A DNA stretch of 64,000 nucleotides from Bacilli bacterium (GCA_017513865.1 JAFWMN010000032.1:16678-80677); one strand, 5' to 3'; shown: positions 23,868-43,578, counted from the stretch's first letter. Translations and numbers: made by a program. The notes: generated from the letters alone by a model not told the origin.

Positions 23868-24007
23868 ATATTTGATATATGAAACATTAATAGGTGTTAA
23901 ATGTATAAAATATTGTTTTTATTATATGTTGTAATATATTCAAGATTCGTGTTTGACTAAATTATAAAAAAAGCGTATTATATACATCAATTCAAGGGGT
24001 GAATGCA

Positions 24008-24889: not shown

Positions 24890-25061
24890 CTCTTTTTTAT
24901 TTTGTATGTTATAATTTACAATAGACATGAATTAATTTTACATATCTCATCAAAAAATGAGACTACTATAATTAATGAAGAGAATATTTCTTTTTAGAGA
25001 AGCAGACATTTATAATTTTTCTTCTAAAGAAATAAAATCGCAAAAAAAATAGAGGGATAAT

Positions 25062-25625
25062 ATGAAAGTATTCAAAATAATTACTGATGAAGATTTCGGC
25101 TTAAAAATGAAGAAAATTACCAATCCAAGAATTAGATTTGGTGCTCGCGGAATTATAATTAATAAAAACAATGAAATTGGATTATTATATAAGGAAAAGA
25201 AAAAAGAGTATAAATTGATTGGTGGTGGGGTAAAAAAAGGTGAAACTTATGAAAATGCTTTTATACGAGAGGCTAGAGAGGAAGCAGGATGCCTAATAAA
25301 TATAGACAAAAAGATAGGAATTATTAAAGAAATCAAAACTCACGATAATTTTATTCAGGAATCAGAAGTATTTATAGCACATGTTGTTAGAGATAAAATG
25401 AAATTAGAGTTAACGGAAAAGGAAATTGGCGAAGGTTCTAAATGTATATGGGTGAAAATTGATAAAGCCATTGAGTTGATTAGAAATTCTGAAAAAGAAA
25501 TAATAGCATCTAAATATGACGGAGAAAAGAGTATTTATCATACAATGTTTATAGTTAGAAGAGATGCTGAAATATTAAAATACTATATAAAGAATTGTAA
25601 TATAATAACACATAAGTTATATTGA
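25062..25625 (+). CDS. NUDIX hydrolase
   Basis: Nudix box GGGVKKGETYENAFIREAREEAGC. Confidence 0.7.
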   Translation: MKVFKIITDEDFGLKMKKITNPRIRFGARGIIINKNNEIGLLYKEKKKEYKLIGGGVKKGETYENAFIREAREEAGCLINIDKKIGIIKEIKTHDNFIQESEVFIAHVVRDKMKLELTEKEIGEGSKCIWVKIDKAIELIRNSEKEIIASKYDGEKSIYHTMFIVRRDAEILKYYIKNCNIITHKLY

Positions 25626-25716
25626 ATTTCAGTAAACATATATTGTAAAATTAATAATTTACAAATATTGAAAAGTCCTTATAATAAAAGATAAATATTA
25701 AAAAAGGAGGACTTTT

Positions 25717-27870: not shown

Positions 27871-28407
27871 ATGGAAGATATACTTACATTAGATAAAATA
27901 TTTAGTTTGCCAAATACGATATTACATAATTCAGAATTGTTAAATGAATATACAAAAATGCTTGATGAAGATTATTATAATAAGTTTAATATTGCTGAGA
28001 TTAAATTAGATTTGGATCAGTTCTTCAAGAAATTTAATAATCTTAAATATACATATAGATATAATATTTCGACTGGTAATAAAGTAATTTCAAATTATGA
28101 TTTTGGCTCTGTAATTAATTCGTATATAAAAAGTGATAAAACAGCAGTATTGGCATGTAATATTATTGATAGTACTGCATTATTAAATGAGATATCTAAT
28201 GCAATGATTAACTTGTCTAATAAATTAACAATTGAAGAAGCAGTCTATTTCGTAAATGAATTTTTTGGGAATCTTTCTGAAACTAAAATTGCTGACAATT
28301 TAAGGATATGCAGAAATACTTTACAAAAAATTAAGAAAAGTTGTTTGGTAAAAACATGGTTTGAATTAAAACCTTATTTAGATGAATTAGAAAAATTAAA
28401 TGAGTGA
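27871..28407 (+). CDS. Hypothetical protein (178 aa)
   Basis: ORF with a GAAAGG RBS, followed by a hairpin and T-run. Confidence 0.4.
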   Translation: MEDILTLDKIFSLPNTILHNSELLNEYTKMLDEDYYNKFNIAEIKLDLDQFFKKFNNLKYTYRYNISTGNKVISNYDFGSVINSYIKSDKTAVLACNIIDSTALLNEISNAMINLSNKLTIEEAVYFVNEFFGNLSETKIADNLRICRNTLQKIKKSCLVKTWFELKPYLDELEKLNE

Positions 28408-28503
28408 CTTAGCACTCTTTTTTTTTGAAAAAATTGGAAGTAAGTAAAAACAGAAAATCAGTGGTGACTGTCTATGCGTACTTTACAATTAAAAATATAT
28501 CAT

Positions 28504-28610: not shown

Positions 28611-29078
28611 ATGAATGCAAATCCAAAAAGAAGAAAATATAGAGATAATCCTTATACATTAATGAATAATGAAGATGAATTTTGTATATTATTTATTGAT
28701 TCATCTAATAATGTTCAGATAATAGAGGTCCCAGAATTTGTTTATGATACTTTCAATCTTTTCGAACTTGAAGATCTTTCTCAAATGAATGAATATGATA
28801 GACACATCGAACATATGAGTTTTGATGACATTTCCTTTAGTAAAATTACAAATAAACAAAAAAGTTTAGAAGATGAAGTAATCAATAAAATTTTATGTGA
28901 CACTCTAAAAAAAGAAATATCGAAATTACCAGAAATACAGAAACGTAGACTTGTTATGTATTTTTTTAATGATATGAAATTAAAAGATATAGCACTTCTT
29001 GAAAATTGTTCCCCTAGAGCTGTAAAGTCAAGTATAGATATCTCTATTTCAAAATTAAAAAAAATATTAAAATATTAA
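28611..29078 (+). CDS. Sigma-70 region-4-like regulator (Tn916 Orf7-like / small sigma-like factor), copy A
   Basis: C-terminal PEIQKRRLVMYFFNDMKLKDIALLENCSPRAVKSSIDISISKLKK matches the region-4 HTH. Paralog of the 41859..42317 gene. Confidence 0.55.
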   Translation: MNANPKRRKYRDNPYTLMNNEDEFCILFIDSSNNVQIIEVPEFVYDTFNLFELEDLSQMNEYDRHIEHMSFDDISFSKITNKQKSLEDEVINKILCDTLKKEISKLPEIQKRRLVMYFFNDMKLKDIALLENCSPRAVKSSIDISISKLKKILKY

Positions 29079-29109
29079 AAATTAGACTTCAAAAAATAAG
29101 TATAAGTGA

Positions 29110-29158
29110 GGAATATAATGAAGGAGTTTTTTCTCTTTCATTATATTCCATTTTTTTA
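29110..29158 (+). terminator. Strong Rho-independent terminator (13-bp stem GGAATATAATGAA/TTCATTATATTCC followed by T7)
   Basis: Read directly from the sequence. Confidence 0.6.
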
Positions 29159-29167
29159 TGGAATTAA

Positions 29168-29379
29168 TGTTCTTTGAAAATTTAGTAAAAATAATCAAAT
29201 ACGTTCTTATTACTTTGAGCACATTAACAAGTACGCTTGCGAATAATACTTGGTTATAAATATTAATTTGCTTTTAATAATGCGATGACAAGAAATAAGT
29301 ATAATGATACTTCTACCCAGCCACAGACTCAACCAATGGGGGTAGTCCTGAATAGATCCAGGAAAGTGAAAATCTTATG
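29168..29379 (+). repeat. 212-bp conserved leader repeat, copy A (about 88% identical to 42389..42600). Contains TATAAT, a CTACCC...GGGTAG hairpin, an RBS and an ATG.
   Basis: Direct repeat found by eye. Both copies lie just downstream of a sigma-like gene and its terminator. Confidence 0.85.
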
Positions 29380-31344
29380 GAATTGATTAGCAATCAATCA
29401 TTTGATTATTACGTGAAACAAATTTTAATAATAAATTTAAAAAGAAAGGTTGTGGAAAAAATGAATTTAGATAATTTAAAATTATCAGGAGTCGGAGAAA
29501 TTCATTTAACAGATTCACTTAATGCATCATTGCTAAAGTTAAATGTTAAACTAAATTCTTCATCCGTGGCTCCAAACAGTAATGATTTGTTCATATATGT
29601 TGATAAAGCAGACATGAACAATCAAACAGATGAAAGAAAAGAATATTTATTTGATTTATCAAACCCATTAAAACAACTAAATGGAGTTAGTGATGAATTT
29701 AAATTAACAATTGAATTTGAAGAAAATGAAGCAATATTAAAAGCTTCCGTAAAAAGAATGATTGGAGTATCTGAAGAAATAGATTATGTATTAGATAGTC
29801 CTGTAATTGAAGAAATTGAAAGTTTTCCAATAACATTATTTGAAGGTGAAAACTATATTTATACAAATTATACAGGAGCAGTTATTGATTTAATGTATCC
29901 AAAAGATACAGAAGTAAATAGAATGTTTTTAAACAATGCTATTTATTACGGTCATAAATTAAAAAAAGATGGTGAATTTACTTTAGATGATATTTATTTC
30001 AAAGATGCATTTACAAAAACAGAAGACAAACTAAACTTAGAAGTGAATAATGCTAACATTGACTGTTTAACTTCTAGAAATAATAAATTTAGTTTAGACA
30101 GTGAAGGTAATTTAATAGTTAATAGTATTACTTCAAAAATACAGACTAATATTGCAGGAGAAGTTACCCTAGACGGTGAAGCATCAAAAATAGAGATTAC
30201 AAATCTAGATGCTTTAAATGACGGCGGTGTATATGAATTTATCGCTATTGGATATACCAATTCTACTACTCAAACAGATATTAGTGTTAAAATTAATGAC
30301 CAAACTTCAGGATATCATCATTGCTATATGAATGCTCAAGGTAATCGAGATAATAGTGGTGGTTTATCTACTAATTTCAATTATGTTCAGGACAGTGATG
30401 ATATAAATGAATTTTTACAAACAAATGGGTCAATTAATTCTTATCCAGTAGTTGTAGAAGGAAGACTATATATTTCGGAAAATTCTTCTAATCAAAAGAG
30501 AGTTAATTATAGTTTAAGACATTATAGAAGTGTTGCATCAGGACAGTCAATTTGTCTATTAGGTGGTGTATTTTCTCAATCATTTGAAAATATTAATTCA
30601 TTAAGTATTTCTTTAACTAACAGTTCAATTAAATTTTCTAAAGGCTCTAGACTAGTCGTATTTAATCCATTAAAGGGGGCAAAAGGTGACCAAGGGGAAA
30701 CTGGCGCTACAGGTCCTTCAAATTCAATAACTATTGGTACAGTAGTAGCGGGAAATGAAGCTAGTGCTACACTTACTGGTGAAAGTCCAAATCAGGTACT
30801 TAATCTTGTATTGCCAAGAGGTGAACAAGGAGAAGCCGGAGGAACAATGACGGTTTCTGAAGTTGAAAATTTAATTACCCAAAGACTTGGTACTTTATAT
30901 CCTGTGGGAAGTATTTATATGTCAGTAGTTGCAACGAATCCAAGTACGTTATTTGGTGGAACTTGGGAACAGCTTAAAGATAGATTTTTACTTGGCGCTG
31001 GAGATATTTATGAAAATGGTGCTACAGGTGGTAGTGCTGAATTACAAGCCCATTTTCATGGTATACCTTCTTTAAGTGGAACAGCTCAAAGTAATGGTGA
31101 TCATTCCCATGTCACATCAAGAAGAACTTCTACATATGGCTCAGGCATGCAGTCAAATTGGAGATGTATTACAGCCCCAGCATCAGCTAATGGAGATTAT
31201 ACTCAGATAAGTAATACTGAAAATGCAGGAGCTCACACACATACAGTAACAACTAATGCAAGCACTACAGAAAGCACAGGTAATGGTACAGCAGGAAATA
31301 TGCCACCATATTTAGCAGTCTATATGTGGAAACGTATTTCATAG
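29377..31344 (+). CDS. Phage tail-fibre-like protein with collagen-like G-X-Y repeats and a C-terminal tail-collar-type domain
   Basis: GAKGDQGETGATGPS...RGEQGEAGG collagen triplets. C-terminal PVGSIYMS...LFGGTWEQLKDRFLLGAG pattern of the phage tail-collar/fibre domain, then His-rich motifs. Confidence 0.6.
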   Translation: MELISNQSFDYYVKQILIINLKRKVVEKMNLDNLKLSGVGEIHLTDSLNASLLKLNVKLNSSSVAPNSNDLFIYVDKADMNNQTDERKEYLFDLSNPLKQLNGVSDEFKLTIEFEENEAILKASVKRMIGVSEEIDYVLDSPVIEEIESFPITLFEGENYIYTNYTGAVIDLMYPKDTEVNRMFLNNAIYYGHKLKKDGEFTLDDIYFKDAFTKTEDKLNLEVNNANIDCLTSRNNKFSLDSEGNLIVNSITSKIQTNIAGEVTLDGEASKIEITNLDALNDGGVYEFIAIGYTNSTTQTDISVKINDQTSGYHHCYMNAQGNRDNSGGLSTNFNYVQDSDDINEFLQTNGSINSYPVVVEGRLYISENSSNQKRVNYSLRHYRSVASGQSICLLGGVFSQSFENINSLSISLTNSSIKFSKGSRLVVFNPLKGAKGDQGETGATGPSNSITIGTVVAGNEASATLTGESPNQVLNLVLPRGEQGEAGGTMTVSEVENLITQRLGTLYPVGSIYMSVVATNPSTLFGGTWEQLKDRFLLGAGDIYENGATGGSAELQAHFHGIPSLSGTAQSNGDHSHVTSRRTSTYGSGMQSNWRCITAPASANGDYTQISNTENAGAHTHTVTTNASTTESTGNGTAGNMPPYLAVYMWKRIS

Positions 31345-31366
31345 TATTAGTGAAAAAGGTGATAAA

Positions 31367-34300
31367 ATGAATAATAATAAGTTTAACAGATTAAATAATA
31401 ATAGAAAACTGTCAAAAGAAGAAATTATGGCAAAAGTTAAAAAGGATTTAGAACCTGATAAAGGTATTGAAATTATATCTAAACGTGGAAAAAGGGAAAA
31501 GCATTTTTTGCAAAAAGATGGTACTATTGTTGCGAAAATATATTCTGACGACATTCATTTTCAAAAAAATAACAAATATGAAGAAATAGATAATACTTTG
31601 ATAAAAGAAGGAAAATATTATAGAAATAAAAATAATTCTTTTAAAGTATATTTTAAAAATAATAGTAAAGAAGATTTTCTTATTTATGAAATTGATGGTA
31701 GCAATTTGATTTTTAACATAACAGATGTTAATGATACTCAGGCAATTATTAGTGATACTGATACTAAATATGTTAAGAAAATTACATATAAAAACATATA
31801 TGAAGAAATAGATTTTGAATATTTGATAACCCCTACAAAAGTAAAAGAAAATATAATTATTAAAAATAAAGAATCATTAAAAAACGATATTAAGTTCATT
31901 TTGAAAACTGAATTATATTTAAAATATAATTCTGAAAAAAGTATAAGCGCAATAAAAAACGGTAAAGTATTGTTCAATTTAGAAGCACCATATATAATCG
32001 ATGCGAATGGCGATATTATCGATAATGTATCATATAAACTAAACAGTTTAGATAATGGATATGAACTATCTTTCATAATAAATAAGGATAAATTATCAGA
32101 TAATAATATTAATTATCCTATTATTATAGACCCAACCATCTCAACATATAGTGATGGCGAAGTTTATGATACATATATATACCCAGGAGATGCATCTGAT
32201 AATTGCAATAGTCATGATGTCTTAAAAGCTTGTGTTGAAAAGGTTAATGGGCAAAATAGAATTAATAGAAGTTTAATAAAATTTGACTTACCTACAATTG
32301 GAACCGGAAGTCAAATCTGCGAAGCAAGATTAAATTTGGTTGGTTATCCTTTATCTGATAATTGGTATGTTGGAAATAATGATAATAATTATATTGATGT
32401 ACATAGGATTACAGAAGATTGGAATGAAAGCAATGCAAAATGGAATAATATGAATGATAAATATGATCATAAAATAATAGACTCATCATATTTTGTTAAA
32501 GGTACAATAACATTTGAAGATACAGATTACACGTATACTGGATATTCTTCCTTCAATATCACTTCATTAGTTCAGAGTTGGTATACTGATAGTCAGAATT
32601 ATGGTGTTTTGCTTAAACAACATAATGAAACATATAATAGCAATTGTGAATTAGCTAAGTTTTATTCAAAAAATAATAATATTAGTGGCGATAACCCAAA
32701 ACCAACTTTAATTATAGTGTATAGAAATCAGAATGGTTTAGAATCATATATGAATTACCAATCACAAGCAATTACTAATGGTATGGTTTATCAGAATACG
32801 TTTAATGGAAATCTTATAGCAATGCTTCAAGTAGCACAGACAATTGGAAGTTATTTGCCTGTTAATTTAAACATTGTTTATAATACAAATGATGTTATTC
32901 TAAATAATAATAGAGGCTTAGGAATTGGGTTTAAATTCACATTATGGCAGACAATAAAAGAAGTCACCATCTCTGGAATTAATTATTTAGAATATTTAGA
33001 TGAAGATGGAACATTACATTATTTTATTAACGAAGATGGTGTATATAAAGATGAAGATAATTTGGAACTTTCTATAGAAAAAAATACTAGTTACTATTTA
33101 TTAACCGATAGATTTGGTAATAAAATGACATTTACAATAGTAAATAGTATAGGATATCTGACAAAGTATCAGGACACATCCAACAATACTATAACGATTA
33201 ATTATGATTCTTCCAATAGAATAATAGAAGTTGTTGACAGCAATAATAAAAATATAATAATTAATTATGATAATGATTTAGTTAGGGTAATAAGTGCTAA
33301 TAATACTGTATGCTTGAATTATTTATCTAATAAATTAGTTTCAGTTTCATATGATTCTGATATTATATCTTTTTCTTATAATGACAATAATTGTATATCA
33401 GAAATAATAAACACAGATGGTTTAAAACTACAATATGAATATTATGAAAAAACACCACATAAGATTAAAAAAGTAAAAGAATATGGGCTGAACAATGAAG
33501 AAGGGTCTTACTTTAGATTTGATTATGGACACAATATTACAAAAATTACTGATAATAAAAATAGAGTAACAACTATAAGTTTTAATGACTCAGGATTAGA
33601 AGTATGTACAAGTGATTTAAAGAATGAAAATGGAGTGTCGAATGCATATTCTATTTTTAACAAATATGGTGAAGATGATATATATAAAAATAAGTTAATA
33701 ACCGGTGGTATCCCAACAAAATATGTAAAGAACTATTTAAAGAACACAGGATTCGAAAATAACGAATTGTTTTTTGTTAAGAGCGATAATTTATTTGATT
33801 TATCATTAACTGAAGAACATGCTTATAATGGGAATAGAAGTTTAAAACTGTCAACAGAATTAAATGATAAAAATATAAGCTACTCGATTTCTGTTCCTAA
33901 AGGGAAATACTATACTTTTAGTTGCTATATTAAGAATAATGCCAAAGTAAAAATTGGATTATCCTACATAGATAGTAATAATAATAGCATTTCGAATAAT
34001 TCTGAATATATCATGCCATCTCAAAGATTTGAGCGAAATGAAGTTTCTATTTTTTATCCAAATGATTCTTTAAGTAATATATCTATAAATATATATCAGG
34101 AATTTGCAGGAATTACTTATATAGATAATATTCAGCTTGAAGAAGGCCAAATTGCAAACAAATTTAATTATATTGAAAATTCTGATTTTTCAGATGGTTT
34201 AACAGGATGGGATTTGTCTTCTGGTGATAATGATAACTCTAGATTTAGTATAGTAGCACTAGATGATAATAGCAAAGCTTTAAAAATTAATATGGATCCT

Positions 34301-37300
34301 ATTATATATACAAGCATTTATAAAGAATTTTATATTAATGGCAAAGCAGGTGAAAAGTATACAATATCGTTTTGGTACAAGGATAACGGTAATTCAAATC
34401 CTGAAAACAATTATGTTATTATTTCACCTAATTTTGAAGAATCATTGGAAACAGATTGGCATCCAGAAGAATCATTAAATTCAAGTGCTAACATTTGGCA
34501 ATATTTTTCAAAAACTATGACTATGCCAGCATCTTTTGATAAAATTGGAATATTACTATTGCAGCATGATGTTAATGAAATGTATATAACAAATATATCA
34601 CTTTACAAAGATGAAAATGAAAGTTCTTATAATTATGACGCTAATGGAAATGTTATAGGAATATATGACTATAACAAAAAAATTGGTTCATATAATTATG
34701 ATTCAAATAATCAAATGATAGGCTCAGCAAATAAAGATGGATGTACTACTTATTATGAATATGATAATCTAATTCATGACAAAATCCATAGGAATCTTAC
34801 TGATTTTGGTATGGTTAATGAGATAATGTATGATAGCAATAATAATCCTATTGTATCAAGAACTATAAAAAAAGGATATCAAAATGATAATACTGATGGC
34901 TTATATAGTATAAGAATTAAAGGAAGTAACACTTATGTGAGAAATATTAGAAATCAAGTTGTTCTTTGTTCTAACTGTGGAATTCATGATTTGTGGAATG
35001 TTAGAAAATATAATGATGATTTTTATACAATTAGCCATTCAATTCTACTAAATAAATTTTTTACTGTCACAAATAATAAATTGACTTTGTGTGATTTTAA
35101 TGAACAAAAATCTTTATTCAAACTAACAAGAAATAAAAATGGTAGTTTTTCAATACAGGATTATAATAATAAATACTTAAAGGTTGATAATAATTTATTA
35201 ATATTGTCAGACTATTCACAAAATGATAGTAATTTTGAGTTTTACTTAGAAAATAGTGTTGGAAAGCAATTTATTGAAGGGAATACTAAATATAATAACA
35301 ATGGAAAATATATTGAAGAGACAATAGATAGCGGCTTATTTACTAGAAAGTATGTTATAGATGAAAATACTGGACATATTGAAAAAATAACTTCATCAGA
35401 TGGAAATGTTACTATTTATGAATATGATGAAGATGAAAAAATTAGTAAAGCAATAAACTTTGACAGAAAAATTATTTATAATTATAACGACAACAAGTGC
35501 TTAAAAGAAATAGTAGTTGGAAATAAAGTTTATAAGTTTATATATGATGACTTCTTAAATATTTCTGAAGTTTTATTAAATAATAATTATTCATTGATAA
35601 AAAGTAATTATGAAAATAATAATGGGGTAGTTTTATCTACAAAATATGGAAATAATGATTTAACATATTATACTTATGATGAGTTTGATAGGTTAAAAAC
35701 TATTACTAGAGGAGACGATGTATATACTTTTATTTACAACAATAATGGTCATTTAGTGAGAATAGTATCGAATAATCATGAAGAAAGATTTATTTATAAT
35801 GAAAATGGTAAATTAGACAGATATGAGTTTGACAATTTTAAGATAAAGTATTCAGAGTCAGATGATGGTATAAGTCACTTTAATGAGTTTGTAATAATAG
35901 AAGGAGAGAATAGTCATTCTGAGCAGATGAATTTTCAATATGTGAATAATAATATTGGGTGCTTAAATTTTGATAATAACAATATTCAATATAGTTATGA
36001 TGAAATAGGAAGATTGATTAAATCTAATATTAATAACAGCATTGATGTTACAATAGAATATTTAAGAAATGGAAATCGCATGACTTCATTAGTTAAAAAA
36101 TACAAATATTACAATAATACATATTTATATAAATATAATAAATCCGGTTTTATTACTCATGAATATATAAATGGAAAACTGAATCACAAATATTACTATA
36201 ATCACTATAATGAATTAATAAAAGAAGATGATTATAAGTTAAGTCAAACAATAAAGTATAATTATGATTTGTATGGAAATTTACTAGAAAAGCGAATTTA
36301 TAAAATTAACAGTTTTGAATTATTAGATCAGATAAAGTATGAATATAATACTAATTGGGAAGATCAATTAGTTGAATTTAACGGAGAAGAAATATTATAT
36401 GACGCAAGTGGAAATGTAACAAATATTAATAATAGAGTTACTTTAACGTGGTCAAATGGTAAGCAATTAGATAAATATCAAGATAATGAGGGTAATATAA
36501 TTATGTATAATTATTCTCATGATGGACTGAGAATAGGAAAAAACATAAATGGAAATGAAATAAAGTATTATTTAGATGGTCATAATATTATATTTGAAAA
36601 AGATGGATTAAATATGATATACTATATACGTGATAACAAGGGTAATCTTTTAGGATTTAAATATAATAATGATTTATATTATTATGTTAAAAATGTTCAA
36701 GAAGATATAATTGGAATTTTAAATTCTAACTATCAGTGCGTTGCAAAATATAGCTATGATAGCTGGGGTAATATTGTTTCAATTACTGATTCTAATGATA
36801 ATGATATTAGTCAGATTAATAATCATATTGCTAACATAAACCCTTTCAGATATCGTAGCTACTATTATGATAAAGAGACATCTCTTTATTATTTAAATAG
36901 TCGTTATTATAATCCTAAATGGGGAAGATTTATAAGTGCTGATGGAATTATAGGAGTTTCAGATTTTATGGGATTCAACTTATATCAATATGCTTTTAAT
37001 AATCCGATAAATTATTCAGATTCAGATGGACATTTTAGTGTACTAGCCGCTATTGTTGGTGGTGTTGTAATAGCAGGAGCATATTCTCTTATTAAAAAAG
37101 CAACTAATTCTAGTAGCAAAAAATCAAACAAGAAGAGTTCATCATCAAAAAACAAAAATAATAAAAAAAATAGTTCCAGTGTATCATCAGCAAGTTCAGT
37201 AGCAAGTGCAGGTGCTCAAAGAGCCTCTAGTAGTCTATCATCTTTAGCAGTTACTTGTACGTATAAAACTCCAAAGAAATATCATTATGAAGATGCAATT

Positions 37301-37765
37301 AAGCAAGCAGAATGCTTTGTTAAGGCTTATGGCATAACTAAAGAAACACATTATAGTCGTAATGATAACTATAATAAACTGCCACTAACTCATCAGAAAG
37401 AGGCGTTTAAATATCATTTTGTTCCAATGCAAAATTCTAGTTGTCATAATATAGGAACAAAAGGTAATACTAAGTATGTTGGACCTATAGAAACAATAGT
37501 TGTAAATGGAAAAGTTATTACAATTCAAAAGGAAGTCGTTTTTGATCCAAGAGGATTTATAGTTACTGATCCTAATAATTATGGAACAGCTAATTTTGCA
37601 CCAAGAATTGAGGGAATAGAAGACAAGGAACTACAAAAAGAAAATCACGATAGACATTATGCTTATGATGTAGCTGCATGGATTTTATGGGGTAATAGTG
37701 AAGATGATACAACATCTATTGAGCAGAGAATAAATGCATATCATAAGTGGAAACCAAAAAAATAA
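31367..37765 (+). CDS. Rhs/YD-repeat polymorphic toxin (2132 aa) with tandem CBM-like domains, an inserted ricin-B-like beta-trefoil, an Rhs core, a TM helix plus Ser/Lys linker, and a variable C-terminal toxin domain
   Basis: Many YD repeats (YDxxGN, YxYDxxxR). Core end motif RYRSYYYDKETSLYYLNSRYYNPKWGRFISADGI. No signal peptide or LXG domain. Confidence 0.85.
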   Translation: MNNNKFNRLNNNRKLSKEEIMAKVKKDLEPDKGIEIISKRGKREKHFLQKDGTIVAKIYSDDIHFQKNNKYEEIDNTLIKEGKYYRNKNNSFKVYFKNNSKEDFLIYEIDGSNLIFNITDVNDTQAIISDTDTKYVKKITYKNIYEEIDFEYLITPTKVKENIIIKNKESLKNDIKFILKTELYLKYNSEKSISAIKNGKVLFNLEAPYIIDANGDIIDNVSYKLNSLDNGYELSFIINKDKLSDNNINYPIIIDPTISTYSDGEVYDTYIYPGDASDNCNSHDVLKACVEKVNGQNRINRSLIKFDLPTIGTGSQICEARLNLVGYPLSDNWYVGNNDNNYIDVHRITEDWNESNAKWNNMNDKYDHKIIDSSYFVKGTITFEDTDYTYTGYSSFNITSLVQSWYTDSQNYGVLLKQHNETYNSNCELAKFYSKNNNISGDNPKPTLIIVYRNQNGLESYMNYQSQAITNGMVYQNTFNGNLIAMLQVAQTIGSYLPVNLNIVYNTNDVILNNNRGLGIGFKFTLWQTIKEVTISGINYLEYLDEDGTLHYFINEDGVYKDEDNLELSIEKNTSYYLLTDRFGNKMTFTIVNSIGYLTKYQDTSNNTITINYDSSNRIIEVVDSNNKNIIINYDNDLVRVISANNTVCLNYLSNKLVSVSYDSDIISFSYNDNNCISEIINTDGLKLQYEYYEKTPHKIKKVKEYGLNNEEGSYFRFDYGHNITKITDNKNRVTTISFNDSGLEVCTSDLKNENGVSNAYSIFNKYGEDDIYKNKLITGGIPTKYVKNYLKNTGFENNELFFVKSDNLFDLSLTEEHAYNGNRSLKLSTELNDKNISYSISVPKGKYYTFSCYIKNNAKVKIGLSYIDSNNNSISNNSEYIMPSQRFERNEVSIFYPNDSLSNISINIYQEFAGITYIDNIQLEEGQIANKFNYIENSDFSDGLTGWDLSSGDNDNSRFSIVALDDNSKALKINMDPIIYTSIYKEFYINGKAGEKYTISFWYKDNGNSNPENNYVIISPNFEESLETDWHPEESLNSSANIWQYFSKTMTMPASFDKIGILLLQHDVNEMYITNISLYKDENESSYNYDANGNVIGIYDYNKKIGSYNYDSNNQMIGSANKDGCTTYYEYDNLIHDKIHRNLTDFGMVNEIMYDSNNNPIVSRTIKKGYQNDNTDGLYSIRIKGSNTYVRNIRNQVVLCSNCGIHDLWNVRKYNDDFYTISHSILLNKFFTVTNNKLTLCDFNEQKSLFKLTRNKNGSFSIQDYNNKYLKVDNNLLILSDYSQNDSNFEFYLENSVGKQFIEGNTKYNNNGKYIEETIDSGLFTRKYVIDENTGHIEKITSSDGNVTIYEYDEDEKISKAINFDRKIIYNYNDNKCLKEIVVGNKVYKFIYDDFLNISEVLLNNNYSLIKSNYENNNGVVLSTKYGNNDLTYYTYDEFDRLKTITRGDDVYTFIYNNNGHLVRIVSNNHEERFIYNENGKLDRYEFDNFKIKYSESDDGISHFNEFVIIEGENSHSEQMNFQYVNNNIGCLNFDNNNIQYSYDEIGRLIKSNINNSIDVTIEYLRNGNRMTSLVKKYKYYNNTYLYKYNKSGFITHEYINGKLNHKYYYNHYNELIKEDDYKLSQTIKYNYDLYGNLLEKRIYKINSFELLDQIKYEYNTNWEDQLVEFNGEEILYDASGNVTNINNRVTLTWSNGKQLDKYQDNEGNIIMYNYSHDGLRIGKNINGNEIKYYLDGHNIIFEKDGLNMIYYIRDNKGNLLGFKYNNDLYYYVKNVQEDIIGILNSNYQCVAKYSYDSWGNIVSITDSNDNDISQINNHIANINPFRYRSYYYDKETSLYYLNSRYYNPKWGRFISADGIIGVSDFMGFNLYQYAFNNPINYSDSDGHFSVLAAIVGGVVIAGAYSLIKKATNSSSKKSNKKSSSSKNKNNKKNSSSVSSASSVASAGAQRASSSLSSLAVTCTYKTPKKYHYEDAIKQAECFVKAYGITKETHYSRNDNYNKLPLTHQKEAFKYHFVPMQNSSCHNIGTKGNTKYVGPIETIVVNGKVITIQKEVVFDPRGFIVTDPNNYGTANFAPRIEGIEDKELQKENHDRHYAYDVAAWILWGNSEDDTTSIEQRINAYHKWKPKK

Positions 37766-37785
37766 ATAGTTGAGGGGAGATAAAT

Positions 37786-38571
37786 ATGAAGAGAATATTA
37801 GGAATTATAATAATTTGCGTAATAATTATAATTACTTGTATTATTTCAATTTTTCGTACATTAAATAGTATGCATTTTAAGTATATCGAGAGGGGCGTAA
37901 AAATTGTTAATAGTAATATTTATCGTTTAAACCTTGCTATAGAAGATGAAAATGAACAAGAAATAAAAAAAATGATAAAAACGATTAATCTTAATAAGTT
38001 ACCATTTTTTTATGAACGAAATGTTATTGAAGAAACCAAGGAACAATACATGAATATTTCCCCATTATCTACCGCCTGCTGGATGGGAAATTATAAAATA
38101 GTTCAGATGTTAATTGAAAATGGTGCAGACGTTAATTATAGAGGGAATTCTTATAATTATTATCCGATTGAACATGCATTAATATATTATGGTATGACAG
38201 AAGATAGATATAAAATTGCAAAGCTATTAATAGAAAAAGGCTCAAAAATAAATGTACGAAGTAGTAATCAAAATTTGTTAGTTTCCTTTTTAATGGCTAA
38301 TTATATTGATAATGATGAATTAAATTCTAAACAAGCTAGATTATGTTTGAAAACAATAAAACTACTTATTAATAAATATAACTATAGTACTGATGAATTA
38401 AATGCCATTTTAGTTGCATCGGTTAAAAGTAATAATTTTATTGTTGCAAAATATCTGATAGAAAATTCTATGCTTTATGATAATAATCAACTTAAATTAA
38501 AAGAATTGTTATTAGAAATTGCAAAGTCCAATGAAAACAAGTCAATGATTGAGTACTTACAAAGTAAATAG
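37786..38571 (+). CDS. Ankyrin-repeat protein, putative immunity protein for the Rhs C-terminal toxin
   Basis: Ankyrin-like repeats (SPLSTACWMGNYKIVQMLIENGADVN...). Immediately downstream of the toxin gene in the canonical toxin/immunity arrangement. Confidence 0.6.
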   Translation: MKRILGIIIICVIIIITCIISIFRTLNSMHFKYIERGVKIVNSNIYRLNLAIEDENEQEIKKMIKTINLNKLPFFYERNVIEETKEQYMNISPLSTACWMGNYKIVQMLIENGADVNYRGNSYNYYPIEHALIYYGMTEDRYKIAKLLIEKGSKINVRSSNQNLLVSFLMANYIDNDELNSKQARLCLKTIKLLINKYNYSTDELNAILVASVKSNNFIVAKYLIENSMLYDNNQLKLKELLLEIAKSNENKSMIEYLQSK

Positions 38572-38695
38572 TTTATTTTTCTTATATTATTTAAAATAGT
38601 TTTATTAGTTAGTACATAATTGATTTTGTCAACTATAATTTAGTTGAATTTAATTACTTTATGTATTTCTAATTAATAAGGAAGGATGGCGAAAA

Positions 38696-39553
38696 TTGAG
38701 TGATATACTCAACATGCATATGACATTGGAAAGTAAAAAAATGAGCAATTACTATAAAAAATTTAAAAGTGGTAAAATAAGTATTGAAGAATTTGAAAAA
38801 GCGAAAAAAGAAGGTTATTTATTTGATTTTCCTACATATCTTGAACACGATGATATACTAAAGCAAATTAAATATTTTGTAAGTCAAATATCAAAAAAAG
38901 ATGTAGCTAATGCATTTCTCTATAGTTTAACAACAAGAAGACTTGAATATAGATCAATTTTAGGTTCATATTGGTATGCCGTAGCTTTATTTCCACACAA
39001 AAAACATAATCGTTATGGAACTGATGGATTTTGCGATATATGTGATTGGATGGATATGCCAAAAGATACACCTGAAAATGAAAAAAAATGGTATCATTAC
39101 AAATATAATATTTATAATTATGATAGATATAGAGTTGGGGGCATTGTACATACAAATGTCAATTATGTAATGTTTGATTTGCGTGAATTTCTAAAAATGC
39201 CAAAAGTTGAGCCAACACAAAAAGACAAAGAAATACTTTTGAAAACACTTCATCTTATTGATGATTTGAAATTAAATAACAAAGCTGGAACATATAGAGA
39301 TTACATTGTGAAAAATAAATTGTTCCCTACTAATAAAAATGAAATCGCTCAATTTTTAAATATACTAGGTGTCTGTGGAGTTTTATCAAGCGATATGTAT
39401 CCATGTTATGATGAATATTATGTTCCTGCGGATGGTTCTAGAGACCCAATTGAGTATTTAAATGATTTTCGCTATCCATTGAATAGATGGAAAGTAGCTG
39501 ATGGTATCAATAAAAAACGCTTTAAAAAAGTATTTGGTTTTGAATATAGATAA
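38696..39553 (+). CDS. Hypothetical protein (285 aa), possibly an orphan immunity or accessory protein
   Basis: ORF with a TTG start. Position in the polymorphic-toxin locus only. Confidence 0.35.
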   Translation: MSDILNMHMTLESKKMSNYYKKFKSGKISIEEFEKAKKEGYLFDFPTYLEHDDILKQIKYFVSQISKKDVANAFLYSLTTRRLEYRSILGSYWYAVALFPHKKHNRYGTDGFCDICDWMDMPKDTPENEKKWYHYKYNIYNYDRYRVGGIVHTNVNYVMFDLREFLKMPKVEPTQKDKEILLKTLHLIDDLKLNNKAGTYRDYIVKNKLFPTNKNEIAQFLNILGVCGVLSSDMYPCYDEYYVPADGSRDPIEYLNDFRYPLNRWKVADGINKKRFKKVFGFEYR

Positions 39554-39723
39554 TATTAAGCAAGATATTGAATATAGTCTCATCAATTTGTTTTCTTCAT
39601 TTACACTAAAAAGATAACTAATATTTGCAAAAGGAATATTATTATAAAACACACAAAATAGCAAAAAATTAAAGAATCTTTGATATTTATTCAAAGATTC
39701 TTTAATATTTATGAAAGGAAATT

Positions 39724-40026
39724 ATGATAGAAATAGTATTAAATTGGTTTATACCTTTTATTTTAACTGCTATATTTGGATATATAGCAAAAGAACTTAA
39801 AGAAAATAAAAAACATGATGAAGCCATGCGTAACAGCATGGTTTTATTATTACGTAGTCAAATAACAGGAAAATGCGAAAATTATTTAAGAATGGGTTTT
39901 CTACCAGATTATGCAAGGAGTTGCTTAGAAGATTTATATAAGCAATATGAATCTTTAGGAGGAAATCATGGAGTAAATAAATTGGTTGATCAAACTTTTA
40001 ACCTAAAACCATTAAAGGAGGATTGA
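39724..40026 (+). CDS. Small protein with an N-terminal TM helix (100 aa)
   Basis: ORF with a GAAAGGAAA RBS. Upstream of the holin/endolysin pair. Confidence 0.35.
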   Translation: MIEIVLNWFIPFILTAIFGYIAKELKENKKHDEAMRNSMVLLLRSQITGKCENYLRMGFLPDYARSCLEDLYKQYESLGGNHGVNKLVDQTFNLKPLKED

Positions 40027-40030
40027 TACT

Positions 40031-40282
40031 ATGGAAATTTATTATATGTCTATTGTTGCAATGATGACTTTTGTCTTTGGTGCAATAAACAAAGCATATT
40101 TTGAAAGTATGCCAAATAGATTTATACCAATTCAAAATGTTTTTATTGGATTAATATCAGGAATTATTTGTTATTTCGGTCATTTAGAAAGTGATTTGTT
40201 AGAATCTATTGTTTTATGCATAATGGCAGCTATGAGTTCAGGAGGAGTTGCCGATATGAAGGATATTGTTAAACGTGATTAA
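40031..40282 (+). CDS. Putative holin (83 aa, 2-3 TM helices)
   Basis: AAAGGAGG RBS, hydrophobic helices and a charged C-terminus. Overlaps the start of the GH25 lysin gene. Confidence 0.5.
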   Translation: MEIYYMSIVAMMTFVFGAINKAYFESMPNRFIPIQNVFIGLISGIICYFGHLESDLLESIVLCIMAAMSSGGVADMKDIVKRD

Positions 40283-41294
40283 AAAAGGTATAGATGTATC
40301 TAAATGGCAAGGGATTATAGACTGGAATAAAGTTAAAAATAGTGGTATTGAATTTGCTATTATAAGAATTGGCTTTGGTAAATTTATTAACCAAAAAGAC
40401 ACCTGTTTTGAAAGAAATTATAGAGAAGCTAGAAATAGTGGTATACCTATAGGTGTATATCATTATAGCTATGCTACTTCTGTAGAAGAGGCAAAAGAAG
40501 AAGCAAAATGTGTTGTAAGATGGTTAAATGGCAGAAAACTAGATTTACCTGTTTATTTCGATATAGAAGATAAATCTCAGAGTTCGTTAAATAAAAATAT
40601 ATTAAATTCTATGTGTGAAGCTTTTTGCAATATTATTGAAAAAGCTGGTTATTGGGCCGGAATATATTCAAACAAATATTGGGCCACATCAATTATTGAT
40701 GGTGCAAAATTAGGTAGTAGATATACGTATTGGATTGCACAATATAATAATGAATGCACTTATAAAGGAAATTATGATATATGGCAATATAGCTCCTCTG
40801 GTAGTGTAGATGGAATAATAGGAAATGTAGATATGAATTATATGAATAGAGATTTAATTTCAGAAATCAACAATCCTAACGACAAATCTAATATAGAAAA
40901 TAATAACAAAGAGAACAATATACTTGATTTAAGCAATTATAATGGAAAATCAATTGTAGATGGATTAAAAAGTATAGGGGTAGATAGTTCTTTTGAAAAC
41001 AGAAGTATTATATATAGAAATATGGGGTTTATTGATGAATATATTGGAAGTAGTATTCAAAATATAAATCTTCTAAATAGACTAAAACATAAATCTATAA
41101 ATACTTTCTATCCTAAATATAATGGAAATAGTGATTCTATAGTAGATGCCTTAAAGTCATTAAATGTTGATAGTTCTATAAATAATAGAAAAATAATAGC
41201 AAAAATTAATAACATCGATAATTATACGGGAAGTGCTATTCAAAATATACAATTACTAAGATTATTAAAAAATGGCCAATTAAAGAAAAAATAA
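40266..41294 (+). CDS. GH25 muramidase (endolysin-like, no signal peptide) with two about 45-aa C-terminal putative cell-wall-binding repeats
   Basis: Start KKGIDVSKWQGIIDWNKVKNSGIEFAIIRIGFG is the GH25 signature. Internal repeats LKSIGVDSS.../LKSLNVDSS.... Confidence 0.8.
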   Translation: MLNVIKKGIDVSKWQGIIDWNKVKNSGIEFAIIRIGFGKFINQKDTCFERNYREARNSGIPIGVYHYSYATSVEEAKEEAKCVVRWLNGRKLDLPVYFDIEDKSQSSLNKNILNSMCEAFCNIIEKAGYWAGIYSNKYWATSIIDGAKLGSRYTYWIAQYNNECTYKGNYDIWQYSSSGSVDGIIGNVDMNYMNRDLISEINNPNDKSNIENNNKENNILDLSNYNGKSIVDGLKSIGVDSSFENRSIIYRNMGFIDEYIGSSIQNINLLNRLKHKSINTFYPKYNGNSDSIVDALKSLNVDSSINNRKIIAKINNIDNYTGSAIQNIQLLRLLKNGQLKKK

Positions 41295-41858
41295 AAGTAT
41301 ATAATAATTTTAATACGCTTTTTTCGATATAAATATTAAATTAAATAATATAATAACAAAAATCATTTTTTATAAAGTAAATTATTTCTTATATTCTGTA
41401 AATAATTAGATATATTATTCGCTTTATTTTATAGACTATTATAAAATTATTGGTAACTATATGTTATATATATTTCTTTCAGACAAAAAAGTACACCATT
41501 CGGAACACTTATATAAAAAAAAGAGAATATTGAATATAATAAAGGCCATCAGCAATTACAAGGGTATGTTAAAGGACTATTGTAATGAAGAAAAAGGGGA
41601 TTTATCCTTTTTCATCGGCGAATCTAACATATACTTTGTATAATGTTCCGTTCATTGTAATTGCAATAGGTGGTTACTATGAACGAAAAATGTTATTTGT
41701 TATGCTGTTTGCTATGTGATAACTCAAGAAGTTTGTCTTCTAGGGCTGTGTCTTTTACTCATTTTAAGAGTAGGAGATGCAGCCCTCTTTTTTTGTGCTC
41801 TTTTTTAGTTAGAGGACCACCTATCCTTTCAATTAAAAAAATTGAAAGGAGTTACGAG

Positions 41859-42317
41859 GTGGATAAAAGACCAATAAGAAGAAAGTATAGAGATAATCCT
41901 TATTTACTAGAAAGCATTAAAGAAAAGAATATATATATTATTAAATTTAATGATATAAATGGAAAACATGAAGTAGTAGTAGACAAGGATATTTTTGATT
42001 TATTTGATAAAAATGAGAAATATGAAAACGCTAGATATTTTGAATATTCTAAACATTTATTTCATAATGAAATTAACTATTCGCAAATTAAATCTAATTA
42101 TTCTTTAGAAGATGAGGTTATAAATAATCTATCTCTTAAAGAATTAAAGTACACTATTGAAATGCTGCCTGATATTCAGAAAAGAAGAATTAAAAAATAT
42201 TATTTTGAAGAGAAAACTTTAGAAGAAATTGCTATGGAAGAAGGCTGTTCAAAAGTTGCAATTAAGTATTCTATTGATAGTGCATTGAGAAAAATATCAA
42301 AAATTTTCAAAATATGA
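41859..42317 (+). CDS. Sigma-70 region-4-like regulator, copy B (GTG start)
   Basis: Paralog of 28611..29078 (RRKYRDNPY...LPDIQKRRIKKYYFEEKTLEEIAMEEGCSKVAIKYSIDSALRKI). AAAGGAG RBS before GTG at 41859. The ORF-track start at 41670 gives an implausible Cys-rich extension. Confidence 0.55.
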   Translation: MDKRPIRRKYRDNPYLLESIKEKNIYIIKFNDINGKHEVVVDKDIFDLFDKNEKYENARYFEYSKHLFHNEINYSQIKSNYSLEDEVINNLSLKELKYTIEMLPDIQKRRIKKYYFEEKTLEEIAMEEGCSKVAIKYSIDSALRKISKIFKI

Positions 42318-42388: not shown

Positions 42389-42600
42389 TGTTCTTTGAAA
42401 ATTTAGTGTCATTTATCAAATACGTTCTTATTACTTTGAGCACATTAACAAGTACGCTTGCGAATAATACTTGGTTATAAAAATAAAGTGGCTCTTTATT
42501 ATGTAATGACGAGTAATAAGTATAATGATACTTCTACCCAGCCACAGACTCAACCAATGGGGGTAGTCCTGAATAGAAACAGGAAAGTGAAATTCTTATG
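42389..42600 (+). repeat. 212-bp conserved leader repeat, copy B. Its ATG opens only a 3-codon ORF (ATG AAA CTG TAA).
   Basis: Paralog of 29168..29379. Confidence 0.85.
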
Positions 42601-42729
42601 AAACTGTAAAGCCGGCAGTTGTTTGATAAATCCCAACTGAGGGAATGAGAAATATATCAGATATGATTAAGTAAAAAATATCCAAGACTTTTTGTCTTGG
42701 TTTATACATATGAAAGGTTAGTGAAAAAA

Positions 42730-42921
42730 ATGAAAGAATATCAAATAGATTTAAAATTAATTTTATCTAGCAAATTTTTACAAAGTGGGAAAAATAAGAA
42801 GGAAATAAGAGATAAAGTTACTAATGTCATAATAGAAGCTTTAAAAAATGATAAGACTTTAAAAATATTATTTAATAATGAAATTCCTGTATATATAATG
42901 GATATAAGTGAAAATGAATAG
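42730..42921 (+). CDS. Candidate antitoxin (63 aa) overlapping the MazF-like gene
   Basis: Small ORF whose stop overlaps the start of the toxin gene. Shows no recognisable antitoxin fold. Confidence 0.3.
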   Translation: MKEYQIDLKLILSSKFLQSGKNKKEIRDKVTNVIIEALKNDKTLKILFNNEIPVYIMDISENE

Positions 42922-43276
42922 AAGAGAAATTAGAAGAGGAGATATTTATACAGCAATTTTAGAATTGGGAATTGGCTCTGAACAAACTGGGATTAGACCT
43001 GTACTTATCATTCAAAATAATGTAGGAAATATATATAGTAATACAACTATAATCGCACCTATTTCATCATCATATACAAAACATGATATTCCAACTCATG
43101 TTTTTTTAAATAATAAAGATTACTTATATAACAGTTCAATTATTTTATTAGAACAAATACGAGTAATATCTAAAAATAGATTAGGTCACTACATAGCACA
43201 TCTAAGCGATAAAAAAATGAAAGATGTTGACAATGCAATATTAAAGTCATTGGGAATAAAAAAAAACAAAATTTAA
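42908..43276 (+). CDS. PemK/MazF-family mRNA interferase toxin
   Basis: RRGDIYTAILELGIGSEQTGIRPVLIIQNNVGNIYSNTTIIAPISS is characteristic of the MazF/PemK family. Confidence 0.65.
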   Translation: MKMNRREIRRGDIYTAILELGIGSEQTGIRPVLIIQNNVGNIYSNTTIIAPISSSYTKHDIPTHVFLNNKDYLYNSSIILLEQIRVISKNRLGHYIAHLSDKKMKDVDNAILKSLGIKKNKI

Positions 43277-43359
43277 AAATATGAGGAGGCAGAGCATTAT
43301 AGAAAAATGTAATTTTTATAAAATAAATAACATAGAATTGGAAGTAGGGAGGAATATTT

Positions 43360-43578
43360 ATGTATAAAACAATAGAGTTTTACGATAATAATGGCTGTGA
43401 CTTAAAAGAGGTACTAAAAAGTTGTATATATAAATATTACATTGAAAATAAAAATTTACTAATAAACAAAAAAAGCAAACTTGAAACGGACGAGAAAAGT
43501 AGTATAATAAAAGCGACTAATAAAGTGAAAAAGTTGTCTAATGAAAGGAGTAAGAAATGTACCCTAAGTACAAATTAG
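43360..43578 (+). CDS. Small protein (72 aa) directly upstream of and overlapping the serine recombinase gene. Candidate recombination directionality factor.
   Basis: Strong RBS GGGAGG. Position only. Confidence 0.3.
   Translation: MYKTIEFYDNNGCDLKEVLKSCIYKYYIENKNLLINKKSKLETDEKSSIIKATNKVKKLSNERSKKCTLSTN

Follow-up and report, generated by a model that had tools for sequence, protein, structure and literature searches.

We analyzed a 64,000-nucleotide stretch of DNA (hereafter, the window) from the metagenome-assembled genome (MAG) of an uncultured 'Bacilli bacterium' (GCA_017513865.1 JAFWMN010000032.1:16678-80677). The window is of low GC content (about 26%) and contains an integrative and conjugative element (ICE), within which positions 28,611 to 42,317 encompass genes for a sigma-like regulator, a phage tail fibre-like protein, a giant Rhs toxin, an ankyrin immunity protein and a phage-type lysis module. 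The original prediction for this region, made from the sequence alone, held that the toxin, which lacks a signal peptide, is released by the adjacent holin and endolysin under the control of the sigma-like regulator, possibly when the ICE is activated. All genes listed in that prediction were found, all co-directional on the plus strand. The cassette includes the following features.

28611..29078, plus strand: regulator 1, 155 aa, sigma region 4 (Pfam Sigma70_r4_2, E=2e-8) and a novel N-terminal domain
29110..29149, plus strand: intrinsic terminator (17-bp stem, then a T-run) at the end of regulator 1
29168..29404, plus strand: leader RNA copy 1, about 235 nt, with a -35-like TTGAAA preceding (29174-29179) and the pemK motif at 29301-29380
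29461..31344, plus strand: tail fibre-like gene (Gp10_C, E=2e-17; PHROG tail proteins; PDB 2FKK, E=1e-3)
31367..37765, plus strand: Rhs toxin, 2132 aa (RHS_repeat, 58.7 bits; DNRLRE, 90 bits; TIGR03696, 67.2 bits)
37786..38571, plus strand: ankyrin immunity protein (Ank_2, E=1.5e-11) with an N-terminal transmembrane (TM) anchor, beginning 20 bp after the Rhs stop
39724..40026, plus strand: 100-aa protein with one N-terminal TM helix (phrog_4105, E=9e-20), first gene of the lysis module
40031..40282, plus strand: holin, 83 aa, three TM segments and a charged C-terminus (PHROG holin families 1129 and 1299, E=4e-5)
40266..41294, plus strand: endolysin without a signal peptide (Glyco_hydro_25, E=2e-35; phrog_291, E=3e-55) with two DUF3597 repeats
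41742..41786, plus strand: strong intrinsic terminator at the end of the toxin/lysis unit, 19-bp stem and T-run

The start of the fibre open reading frame (ORF) as originally listed (29377) falls within the conserved leader RNA, and the likely start is at 29461, as in an identical public contig. Between 29149 and 41742, the window contains no predicted plus-strand terminator. Given that the same arrangement recurs in dozens of other genomes, it is far from what would be expected by chance.

Conservation of the cassette across genomes

A scan of one genome per species detected 593 related Rhs stretches, and 74 loci were fetched, mostly from gut MAGs labelled 'Bacilli' or 'Tenericutes', with a few labelled Clostridia. 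Locus L025 comes from Roseburia sp. AF12-17LB, which would be a cultured carrier. The relatives of the Rhs protein number in the hundreds, are about 2050 aa long and show 40-49% identity, with C-terminal domains that differ. Labels of neighboring genes were propagated with phmmer over our own ORF calls and spot-checked against Pfam; the seed-based counts of lysis genes are lower bounds. Rhs homologues of 42-46% identity are encoded within the same cassette, both on ICEs and in chromosomal sites. Three of the relatives' loci (L003, L005 and L007) keep the gene order of the window, that is, a gene with sigma region 4, a Gp10_C gene, Rhs, a small or immunity gene, a small TM protein, a holin and a peptidoglycan hydrolase. 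The first of these adjoins another ICE and the other two are located between housekeeping genes (e.g. asparagine synthase, DpaA, MutS, sigE/sigG). Two types of gene order were delineated, namely type A (regulator, fibre, Rhs, immunity, TM, holin, lysin) and type B ((helix-turn-helix regulator), TM, holin, lysin, fibre, Rhs, immunity). The lysis genes remain in the immediate neighborhood in both, 3' of the immunity gene in type A and directly 5' of the fibre gene in type B.

For quantification, we used the 41 non-redundant loci with at least 4 kb of sequence on each side (the full-flank set). A fibre gene is located within 600 bp upstream of Rhs in 32 of these loci, and a recognisable holin and/or lysin is found within 5 kb in at least 25. 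The density of lysin ORFs per 100 kb is 5.1 within 5 kb of Rhs vs 0.7 in the outer 5-10 kb flanks; the respective values are 4.0 vs 1.2 for holins and 11.6 vs 0.7 for fibre (Gp10_C) ORFs. The genes from Rhs to lysin are co-directional and separated by short gaps in 18 of 20 loci.

Three loci (L066, L078 and L012) have a holin-like gene alone directly 5' of the fibre-Rhs genes, with no lysin detected; in L066 and L012, the two checked, the neighbors are housekeeping genes. Where a lysin or any local lysis gene is missing, release may rely on lysis functions encoded elsewhere. The explanation that lysin-less loci belong to wall-less 'Tenericutes' was rejected because MAGs so labelled do carry lysins.

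Rhs relatives with and without a signal peptide

Among the 62 full-length family Rhs proteins assessed in the fetched loci, 56 are leaderless (that is, have no hydrophobic N-terminus) and six (L042, L053, L069, L072, L079 and L082) possess a typical signal peptide. A fibre gene lies directly 5' of Rhs in 53 of 55 leaderless cases vs none of the four with a signal peptide (Fisher p=3e-5), and the two leaderless exceptions have fibre-like genes downstream instead. Local lysis genes are present in 24 of 38 leaderless loci vs none of three with a signal peptide (Fisher p 0.06, with small numbers). In Bacillaceae, distant DNRLRE-Rhs proteins from plasmids of Priestia and Cytobacillus carry Sec signal peptides, and their genes have neither fibre nor holin nor lysin genes as neighbors. 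Given this contrast between leaderless and signal peptide-containing proteins, the loss of the export signal accompanies the gain of the fibre partner and, usually, of the lysis module; this is the strongest computational support for lysis-dependent release.

Fibre-like protein, Rhs toxin and immunity protein

The fibre-like protein combines a collagen-like Gly-X-Y stretch with a C-terminal Gp10_C domain (the head domain of T4 gp10) and has no signal peptide. The core conserved among its homologues consists of an N-terminal segment of ~50 aa, located at residues ~198-256 of the 655-aa ORF in the window, and Gp10_C, to which the version in the window adds extra domains and the collagen-like stretch. 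The fibre-like gene, rather than the regulator, is the most strictly conserved partner of the toxin, a role that was underrated in the original prediction. An apparent binding domain shared by lysin and fibre was rejected as an artefact of a single Collar-domain protein in L005.

The Rhs protein contains, from the N-terminus, a DUF7948-like region, DNRLRE, two CBM_4_9 domains, the Rhs shell with YD repeats and the core, followed by a TM helix, a linker rich in S and K, and the C-terminal domain. The core (TIGR03696) maps to residues 1797-1889 (67.2 bits vs the cutoff of 32.5), and the C-terminal region, in which the last domain is ~190 aa long, begins after it (..NPINYSDSDG). The N-terminus has no hydrophobic segment, and no signal peptide, PAAR, LXG/WXG or TcB-type module was detected there in Pfam and NCBIfam searches. 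The ~190-aa toxin domain has no homologue by Pfam at E≤1, PDB sequence or protein database searches; it is common to only two of 119 relatives (P0002 and P0004), the C-termini of the rest being different. The P0002 locus (L003), the only one of the two examined, also has a homologous ankyrin gene directly 3' of Rhs. This is in line with the two being a cognate toxin/immunity pair, which would point to a bacterial target.

In 24 loci, short Rhs-repeat fragments and small genes are found 3' of the full-length Rhs-immunity pair; such an arrangement typifies orphan toxin-tip/immunity arrays for C-terminal switching.

Lysis module

The holin gene overlaps the start of the lysin gene, in which the GH25 catalytic domain begins at residue 9. 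As in type 10 secretion systems (T10SS) as defined by Palmer et al., a holin gene adjoins that of a signal-less peptidoglycan hydrolase, and leaderless cargo is linked to lysis genes outside prophages. The hydrolase belongs to the GH25 family in the window, L003 and L046, to M23 in L005, L009, L015 and L017, and to Amidase_2 in L067; L007, L019 and L039 have a hydrolase that combines an unclassified catalytic domain with CW_7/LysM. The holin position is occupied in other loci by Phage_holin_6_1, Phage_holin_4_1 or unclassified small TM proteins, with at least three families represented. Because these non-orthologous families swap at a fixed position, the holin and the wall hydrolase appear to be selected as parts of the unit.

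Homologues of the 100-aa TM protein are encoded immediately 5' of the holin gene in at least 10 loci; this protein is possibly a holin partner or antiholin. No BhlA/UviB match in Pfam was obtained for this protein (up to E=1) or for the holin (up to E=0.01).

Sigma-like regulators and the structured leader RNA

The cassette regulator has a paralogue in the recombination module of the ICE, which is followed by a second leader copy and an operon for recombination:

41859..42317, plus strand: regulator 2, a paralogue of regulator 1 (38% identity)
42389..42625, plus strand: leader RNA copy 2 (pemK motif at 42522-42601; 248 bits with the R1 model described below)
42697-45143: PemK/serine-recombinase operon 3' of leader copy 2 (small ORF, PemK, 72-aa ORF, serine recombinase)

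The ORF of regulator 2 that begins at GTG 41670 reads through the strong terminator at 41742-41786; the real start is at about 41859, giving 152 aa. This gene had been taken to bracket the toxin locus and belongs instead to the ICE recombination module. A sigma-like gene located 3' of the lysin and before a recombinase is also found in L009 and L054, where the cassette is likewise flanked on either side by sigma-like genes (two-regulator layout); in L059 and L077, a downstream sigma-like gene is present and no recombinase was detected there.

Regulator 1 precedes the fibre-Rhs genes in at least 13 of the 41 full-flank loci. The family is annotated at the NCBI as 'sigma factor-like helix-turn-helix DNA-binding protein', and the profile searches match region 4 only, with no region 2 detected in either regulator. 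All NCBIfam sigma models score below cutoff (17.3 bits vs 138 for the BotR model TIGR03209). In the AlphaFold2 (AF2) model (predicted local distance difference test score, pLDDT, 73), residues 15-54 form three strands and a helix and residues 86-153 form the sigma4 domain, which alone aligns in Foldseek searches. The assignment of the regulator to the TcdR/UviA/BotR/TetR group-5 sigma factors, as originally proposed, was therefore abandoned: region 4 is the only sigma region, the models score below cutoff and the N-terminal domain contains beta-strands. A TTGACA-like box is conserved 3' of the regulator gene in 12 loci, which is compatible with binding by region 4 and does not prove it.

Downstream of each regulator gene in the window come a terminator, a TTGAAA/TTGACA box and a conserved ~235-nt region. 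Both copies of this region contain the Rfam pemK motif (RF02913; 43.8 bits at 29301-29380 and 46.1 bits at 42522-42601, with the gathering score at 34.8); the motif makes up only the 3' third of a larger RNA that spans about 235 nt and covaries. The alignment of 12 leader sequences yields ten helices with 53 pairs (96% paired), and compensatory changes are seen in 37 of the 53 pairs compared to 16.6±2.4 in shuffled alignments and 7-14 in slid controls. Helices 1-6 lie 5' of the Rfam model and pair with the supposedly unpaired 5' end of that model. No Rfam family matches the 5' two-thirds of the leader; the dinG motif (RF03082) overlaps but is below threshold. The 'TATAAT' sequence in the leader is an unlikely -10 box because it is base-paired, with covariation, in helices 1-2.

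A covariance model (R1) built from the 12-sequence alignment was searched over the 1.74 Mb of fetched loci and matched 16 copies, of which 13 are located directly 5' of fibre-Rhs operons, including chromosomal ones, and three, leader copy 2 of the window among them, precede ICE recombinase-type operons; leader copy 1 scores 256.8 bits. No copy was found before holin genes in this search. The leader occurs in the window (both copies), L003, L005, L007, L019, L025, L039, L046, L052, L055, L058, L067, L077, L009 and L020, in most of these following a sigma-region-4 gene and a TTGACA-like box; the upstream ORF is not sigma-like in L025, L052, L055 and L077.

The two leader copies of the window are identical in 194 of 215 positions (~90%). 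Because nearly the same promoter and leader precede both operons, the toxin/lysis operon is probably co-regulated with the PemK-recombinase operon, and toxin release with ICE activation. The suggestion that the toxin is fired when the ICE is activated gains indirect support from the shared promoter/leader.

The leader copies also make up two direct repeats of ~220 bp located ~13.2 kb apart (29168-29404 and 42389-42625) that bracket the fibre, Rhs and lysis genes together with regulator 2. Homologous recombination between these repeats would cleanly delete or insert the weapon cassette. In ten loci (L009, L024, L030, L043, L045, L048, L051, L054, L064 and L071), an extra gene between fibre and Rhs, missing in the window, encodes a ~120-aa protein with a coiled coil and a helix-turn-helix-like 'GIE..LYYEI..G.N..KAV' motif. 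The structured leader is lacking from cassettes with this gene, and their regulation may be organised differently.

The ICE and accessory genes

The following features place the cassette in the ICE and complete the inventory of its surroundings:

1128-45212: ICE, ~44 kb, with junctions at about 1127/1128 and 45212/45213, precisely interrupting spoIVA
27871..28407, plus strand: 178-aa accessory gene with a weak C-terminal helix-turn-helix and no Pfam family above threshold
28402-28417: terminator-like hairpin overlapping the end of the 178-aa gene
38696..39553, plus strand: lineage-specific gene, 285 aa, outside the conserved cassette
39668..39706: palindromic hairpin (16 bp) separating the 285-aa gene from the lysis genes, terminator-like on the minus strand and weak at most on the plus strand

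If the N-terminal part of spoIVA (765-1127, ending ..PRMVHTPW) were joined again to the C-terminal part, which starts at 45213 (YEEAIPF...), the reading frame would be restored. The predicted ICE context was borne out: around the cassette, we detected genes for ParA/ParB, a SpaA adhesin with a sortase, a relaxase, the type IV coupling protein (T4CP), PrgI, VirB4, a CHAP hydrolase and, at the right end of the element, a large serine recombinase. The cassette itself is located between the conjugation genes and the recombination module. An ICE within spoIVA resembles the intervening elements of sporulation genes of the skin/SPbeta type, the present one being conjugative and equipped with a toxin/lysis cassette. 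The conjugation region also encodes a eukaryotic-type Ser/Thr protein kinase (window 16605-17864), and the SpaA/thioester-domain adhesin has its own sortase (window 5163-7572).

The fibre-like gene and the lysis module are the only phage-like genes of the element, and no capsid, terminase or tail-tube genes were found in the window. Likewise, the 44-kb element has none of the sheath, tube and baseplate or capsid and terminase genes by which a tailocin or prophage would be recognized, the remainder consisting of conjugation and cargo genes. A prophage context of the window was rejected on these grounds; the scan of viral contigs yielded 8 loci, mostly fragments, and the INPHARED matches were weak or partial. 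No type VII secretion system (T7SS) or other secretion system was found near the toxin within the window.

Homologues of the 178-aa gene adjoin the cassette in 14 loci, mostly directly 5' of the sigma-like gene, and its product is a possible co-regulator. A ~600-aa GFO_IDH_MocA-like oxidoreductase is encoded just 5' of the cassette in about seven loci (among them the window, at 23999-27543, L003, L038, L047, L049 and L070), next to a LysR regulator in the window, L003, L038 and L070, and with a NUDIX or His_Phos gene in the window and L003; it may provide a linked accessory function, e.g. modification of a surface glycan or receptor. The 285-aa gene is present only in contigs identical to the window, and its product has no match in Pfam (E≤1), PHROG, NCBIfam, PDB sequence or protein database searches.

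Comparison with known systems

Similarly to the C. difficile pathogenicity locus (PaLoc; TcdR, TcdB/TcdA, TcdE and the TcdL remnant) and the bcn-uviAB locus of C. perfringens pIP404, the cassette places a large leaderless toxin or bacteriocin beside a phage-type holin, with or without a lysin, and provides a dedicated small positive regulator. The pIP404 locus, too, resides on a mobile element, and in both known systems release hinges on the holin or on lysis. Unlike in these systems, the regulator is not a group-5 sigma factor and lacks region 2, a polymorphic Rhs toxin accompanied by an immunity gene takes the place of the glucosyltransferase toxin, the lysin is intact and its catalytic type varies between loci, and there are an obligatory fibre-like partner and a structured leader RNA.

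The closest in logic is the T10SS of Yersinia, where the Tc toxin of Y. entomophaga and Y. enterocolitica is released by a holin-endolysin-spanin cassette (PMC10847048, PMC10847046, PMC9718411): there, too, a signal-less Rhs-cocoon toxin complex is combined with a dedicated phage-derived lysis cassette in a specialised subpopulation. In the Yersinia complex, a separate large TcA binds the receptor, whereas in our case the partner is a small phage fibre-tip protein. Furthermore, the present cassette is Gram-positive, has no spanin, and is compact and often ICE-borne; its toxin is a single-chain Rhs protein with DNRLRE and CBM domains, and the adjacent immunity gene implies bacterial rather than insect targets. 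Domain searches found no TcA-like translocator and no TcB SpvB/beta-propeller in the Rhs protein or its neighbors, which sets it apart from Tc toxins.

As in colicin and pyocin operons, a mobile element combines genes for toxin, immunity and lysis, a fraction of the cells would release the toxin altruistically, and binding and toxicity are assigned to separate modules. In colicin operons, the lysis device is a lipoprotein; here it is a holin and an endolysin. Moreover, the toxin has an encapsulating Rhs shell and ends in a polymorphic C-terminus, receptor binding would fall to a distinct protein resembling phage fibres, and the regulation is not known to be SOS-dependent. With other Rhs/YD toxins (WapA of B. 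subtilis and S. suis, PAAR/VgrG-Rhs of type VI secretion systems (T6SS) and LXG-Rhs of the T7SS), the protein shares the YD shell, the core, the variable C-terminus and the downstream immunity gene; in contrast to these, it has no signal peptide, PAAR, LXG or WXG module, the fibre-like gene is strictly linked and lysis genes are frequent.

In Tn916, Orf7 is a sigma-like regulator that acts upstream of the ICE excision/recombination operon, and a similar small region-4-only 'sigma factor-like HTH' (helix-turn-helix) protein is encoded before the ICE recombination operon here. The Rfam pemK motif RF02913, above its gathering score, likewise precedes a pemK gene in this ICE. The difference is that the module of regulator and leader has been duplicated, or co-opted, for a toxin/lysis operon, including loci outside ICEs.

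Toxin release and alternative explanations

On the strength of these comparisons, we consider it probable that a self-contained 'Rhs bacteriocin' cassette, widespread among gut Bacilli/Firmicutes, is present here as a copy on an ICE and that its toxin is released by lysis. Under this scenario, the small DNA-binding protein with sigma region 4 and the ~235-nt structured leader RNA would control one long operon coding for the fibre-like protein, the leaderless 2132-aa Rhs cocoon, the membrane-anchored ankyrin immunity protein and the TM protein/holin/GH25 endolysin module. The toxin, probably docked on a trimeric fibre-like partner, would build up in the cytoplasm of a subset of cells; the holin would then give the endolysin access to the wall, and the producer would lyse or leak, freeing the complex. 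The fibre tip and the CBM domains of the toxin could bind the surface of related bacteria, into which the polymorphic C-terminal domain with its own TM helix would be delivered, with the immunity protein shielding kin. Through the ~90% identical promoter/leader, release would probably be induced together with ICE activation.

The core of the original prediction, in which a holin and a cytoplasmic hydrolase are coupled to a giant Rhs toxin without a leader, under a dedicated regulator on an ICE, is supported by the linkage of these genes in diverged loci, including some outside ICEs and prophages, by the swaps of lysis gene families, and by the exclusion of fibre and lysis genes where Rhs has a signal peptide. 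Several points weigh against lysis-dependent release of the toxin. By the seed-based counts, 14 of 38 leaderless loci have no lysis gene within 5 kb, so that the association is frequent rather than obligatory. In the window, the 285-aa gene and the hairpin at 39668-39706 intervene between the immunity and lysis genes, making co-transcription uncertain. Both the interaction of fibre and toxin and a bacterial target are purely conjectural, and the toxin domain is without a recognisable homologue. Lysing the ICE's own host would be costly and would require tight subpopulation control. Finally, the hosts are uncultured MAGs, and the link between toxin and lysis rests on comparative genomics.

A different explanation, which appears unlikely, is that the cassette is a prophage remnant, namely the decayed 3' end of a siphophage late operon into which the Rhs-immunity pair inserted as a moron, with the toxin released otherwise or via a helper phage. 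Fibre, small TM protein, holin and lysin are the usual end of a Firmicute phage late operon, and the genes match PHROG tail, holin and endolysin families. Moreover, a 650-aa phage tail protein (phrog_372) is encoded just upstream in L065, L084 and L085, which is compatible with such an origin and counts against the bacteriocin cassette scenario, and IMG/VR lists three such contigs as viral. However, there are no further phage structural or replication genes in the window, L005 or L007, the latter two being flanked by housekeeping genes. Nor would decay readily account for cassettes in which all ORFs are intact over dozens of diverged genomes, other lysin and holin families are substituted in the same positions, both alternative gene orders keep the lysis genes, own regulators are present, and fibre genes are strictly coupled to leaderless Rhs and absent beside Rhs with signal peptides.

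The same gene content is equally expected if export is non-lytic, as in some models of T10SS and PaLoc, such that the holin forms a conduit, the wall is opened locally and the Rhs/fibre complex exits living cells. This would spare the ICE host, and the extra conserved TM protein before the holin could modulate the latter; non-lytic holin-dependent release has been proposed for TcdA/TcdB (via TcdE) and for TpeL. Nevertheless, for a holin lesion, a folded Rhs cocoon of ~240 kDa and its fibre would be a very large load, the endolysins are catalytic enzymes of full length rather than degenerate remnants like TcdL, and recent work on Yersinia Tc toxins (PMC10847048) and on C. difficile (PMC12485765) favours subpopulation lysis, leaving this mode of export improbable. 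Least plausible is that the holin and lysin are unrelated to the toxin and serve the ICE, by releasing DNA or aiding transfer, or form an abortive, addiction-like module with PemK. The location of the cassette between the conjugation and recombination modules, with regulator 2 and the PemK toxin-antitoxin pair adjacent, is in line with this. Yet the holin/lysin-fibre-Rhs unit also occurs in chromosomal loci without ICE genes, the ICE has its own CHAP-domain hydrolase of the type IV secretion system for conjugation, and the lysis genes track the Rhs/fibre pair and not the conjugation genes.

A bolder extension of the bacteriocin cassette scenario is that the cassette represents a previously unrecognised class of Gram-positive bacteriocins, in which a fibre-guided Rhs cocoon, put together in the cytoplasm, leaves the cell solely via its own holin and endolysin, as a Gram-positive T10SS, with the region-4-only protein and the leader also controlling ICE excision. 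Because spoIVA is interrupted by this ICE, a single coordinated programme could cover toxin release, excision and perhaps, during sporulation, lysis of the mother cell. We regard this extension as conceivable and tentative.

Implications

The cassette would be a novel Gram-positive form of toxin release that depends on a lysis cassette, the mechanism being inferred from the genes; a full-text literature search that covered few subscription journals retrieved no published description of it, so that an earlier description is possible. It bears on two questions, namely how large leaderless toxins exit Gram-positive bacteria and how Rhs toxins reach Gram-positive targets without a T6SS or T7SS. 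With seven to eight genes, the cassette is compact and genetically tractable, and the relatives with signal peptides and without fibre or lysis genes are a natural control that gives a falsifiable prediction. The orphan pemK RNA motif gains a biological context and proves to be a segment of a larger RNA associated with a sigma-like regulator. The strict linkage of the fibre-like gene suggests that phage receptor-binding proteins have been recruited for aiming Rhs toxins, and such aiming could serve the design of programmable narrow-spectrum antibacterials against gut Firmicutes. In the bacterium analyzed here, an ICE inside a sporulation gene would bear a weapon of altruistic lysis.

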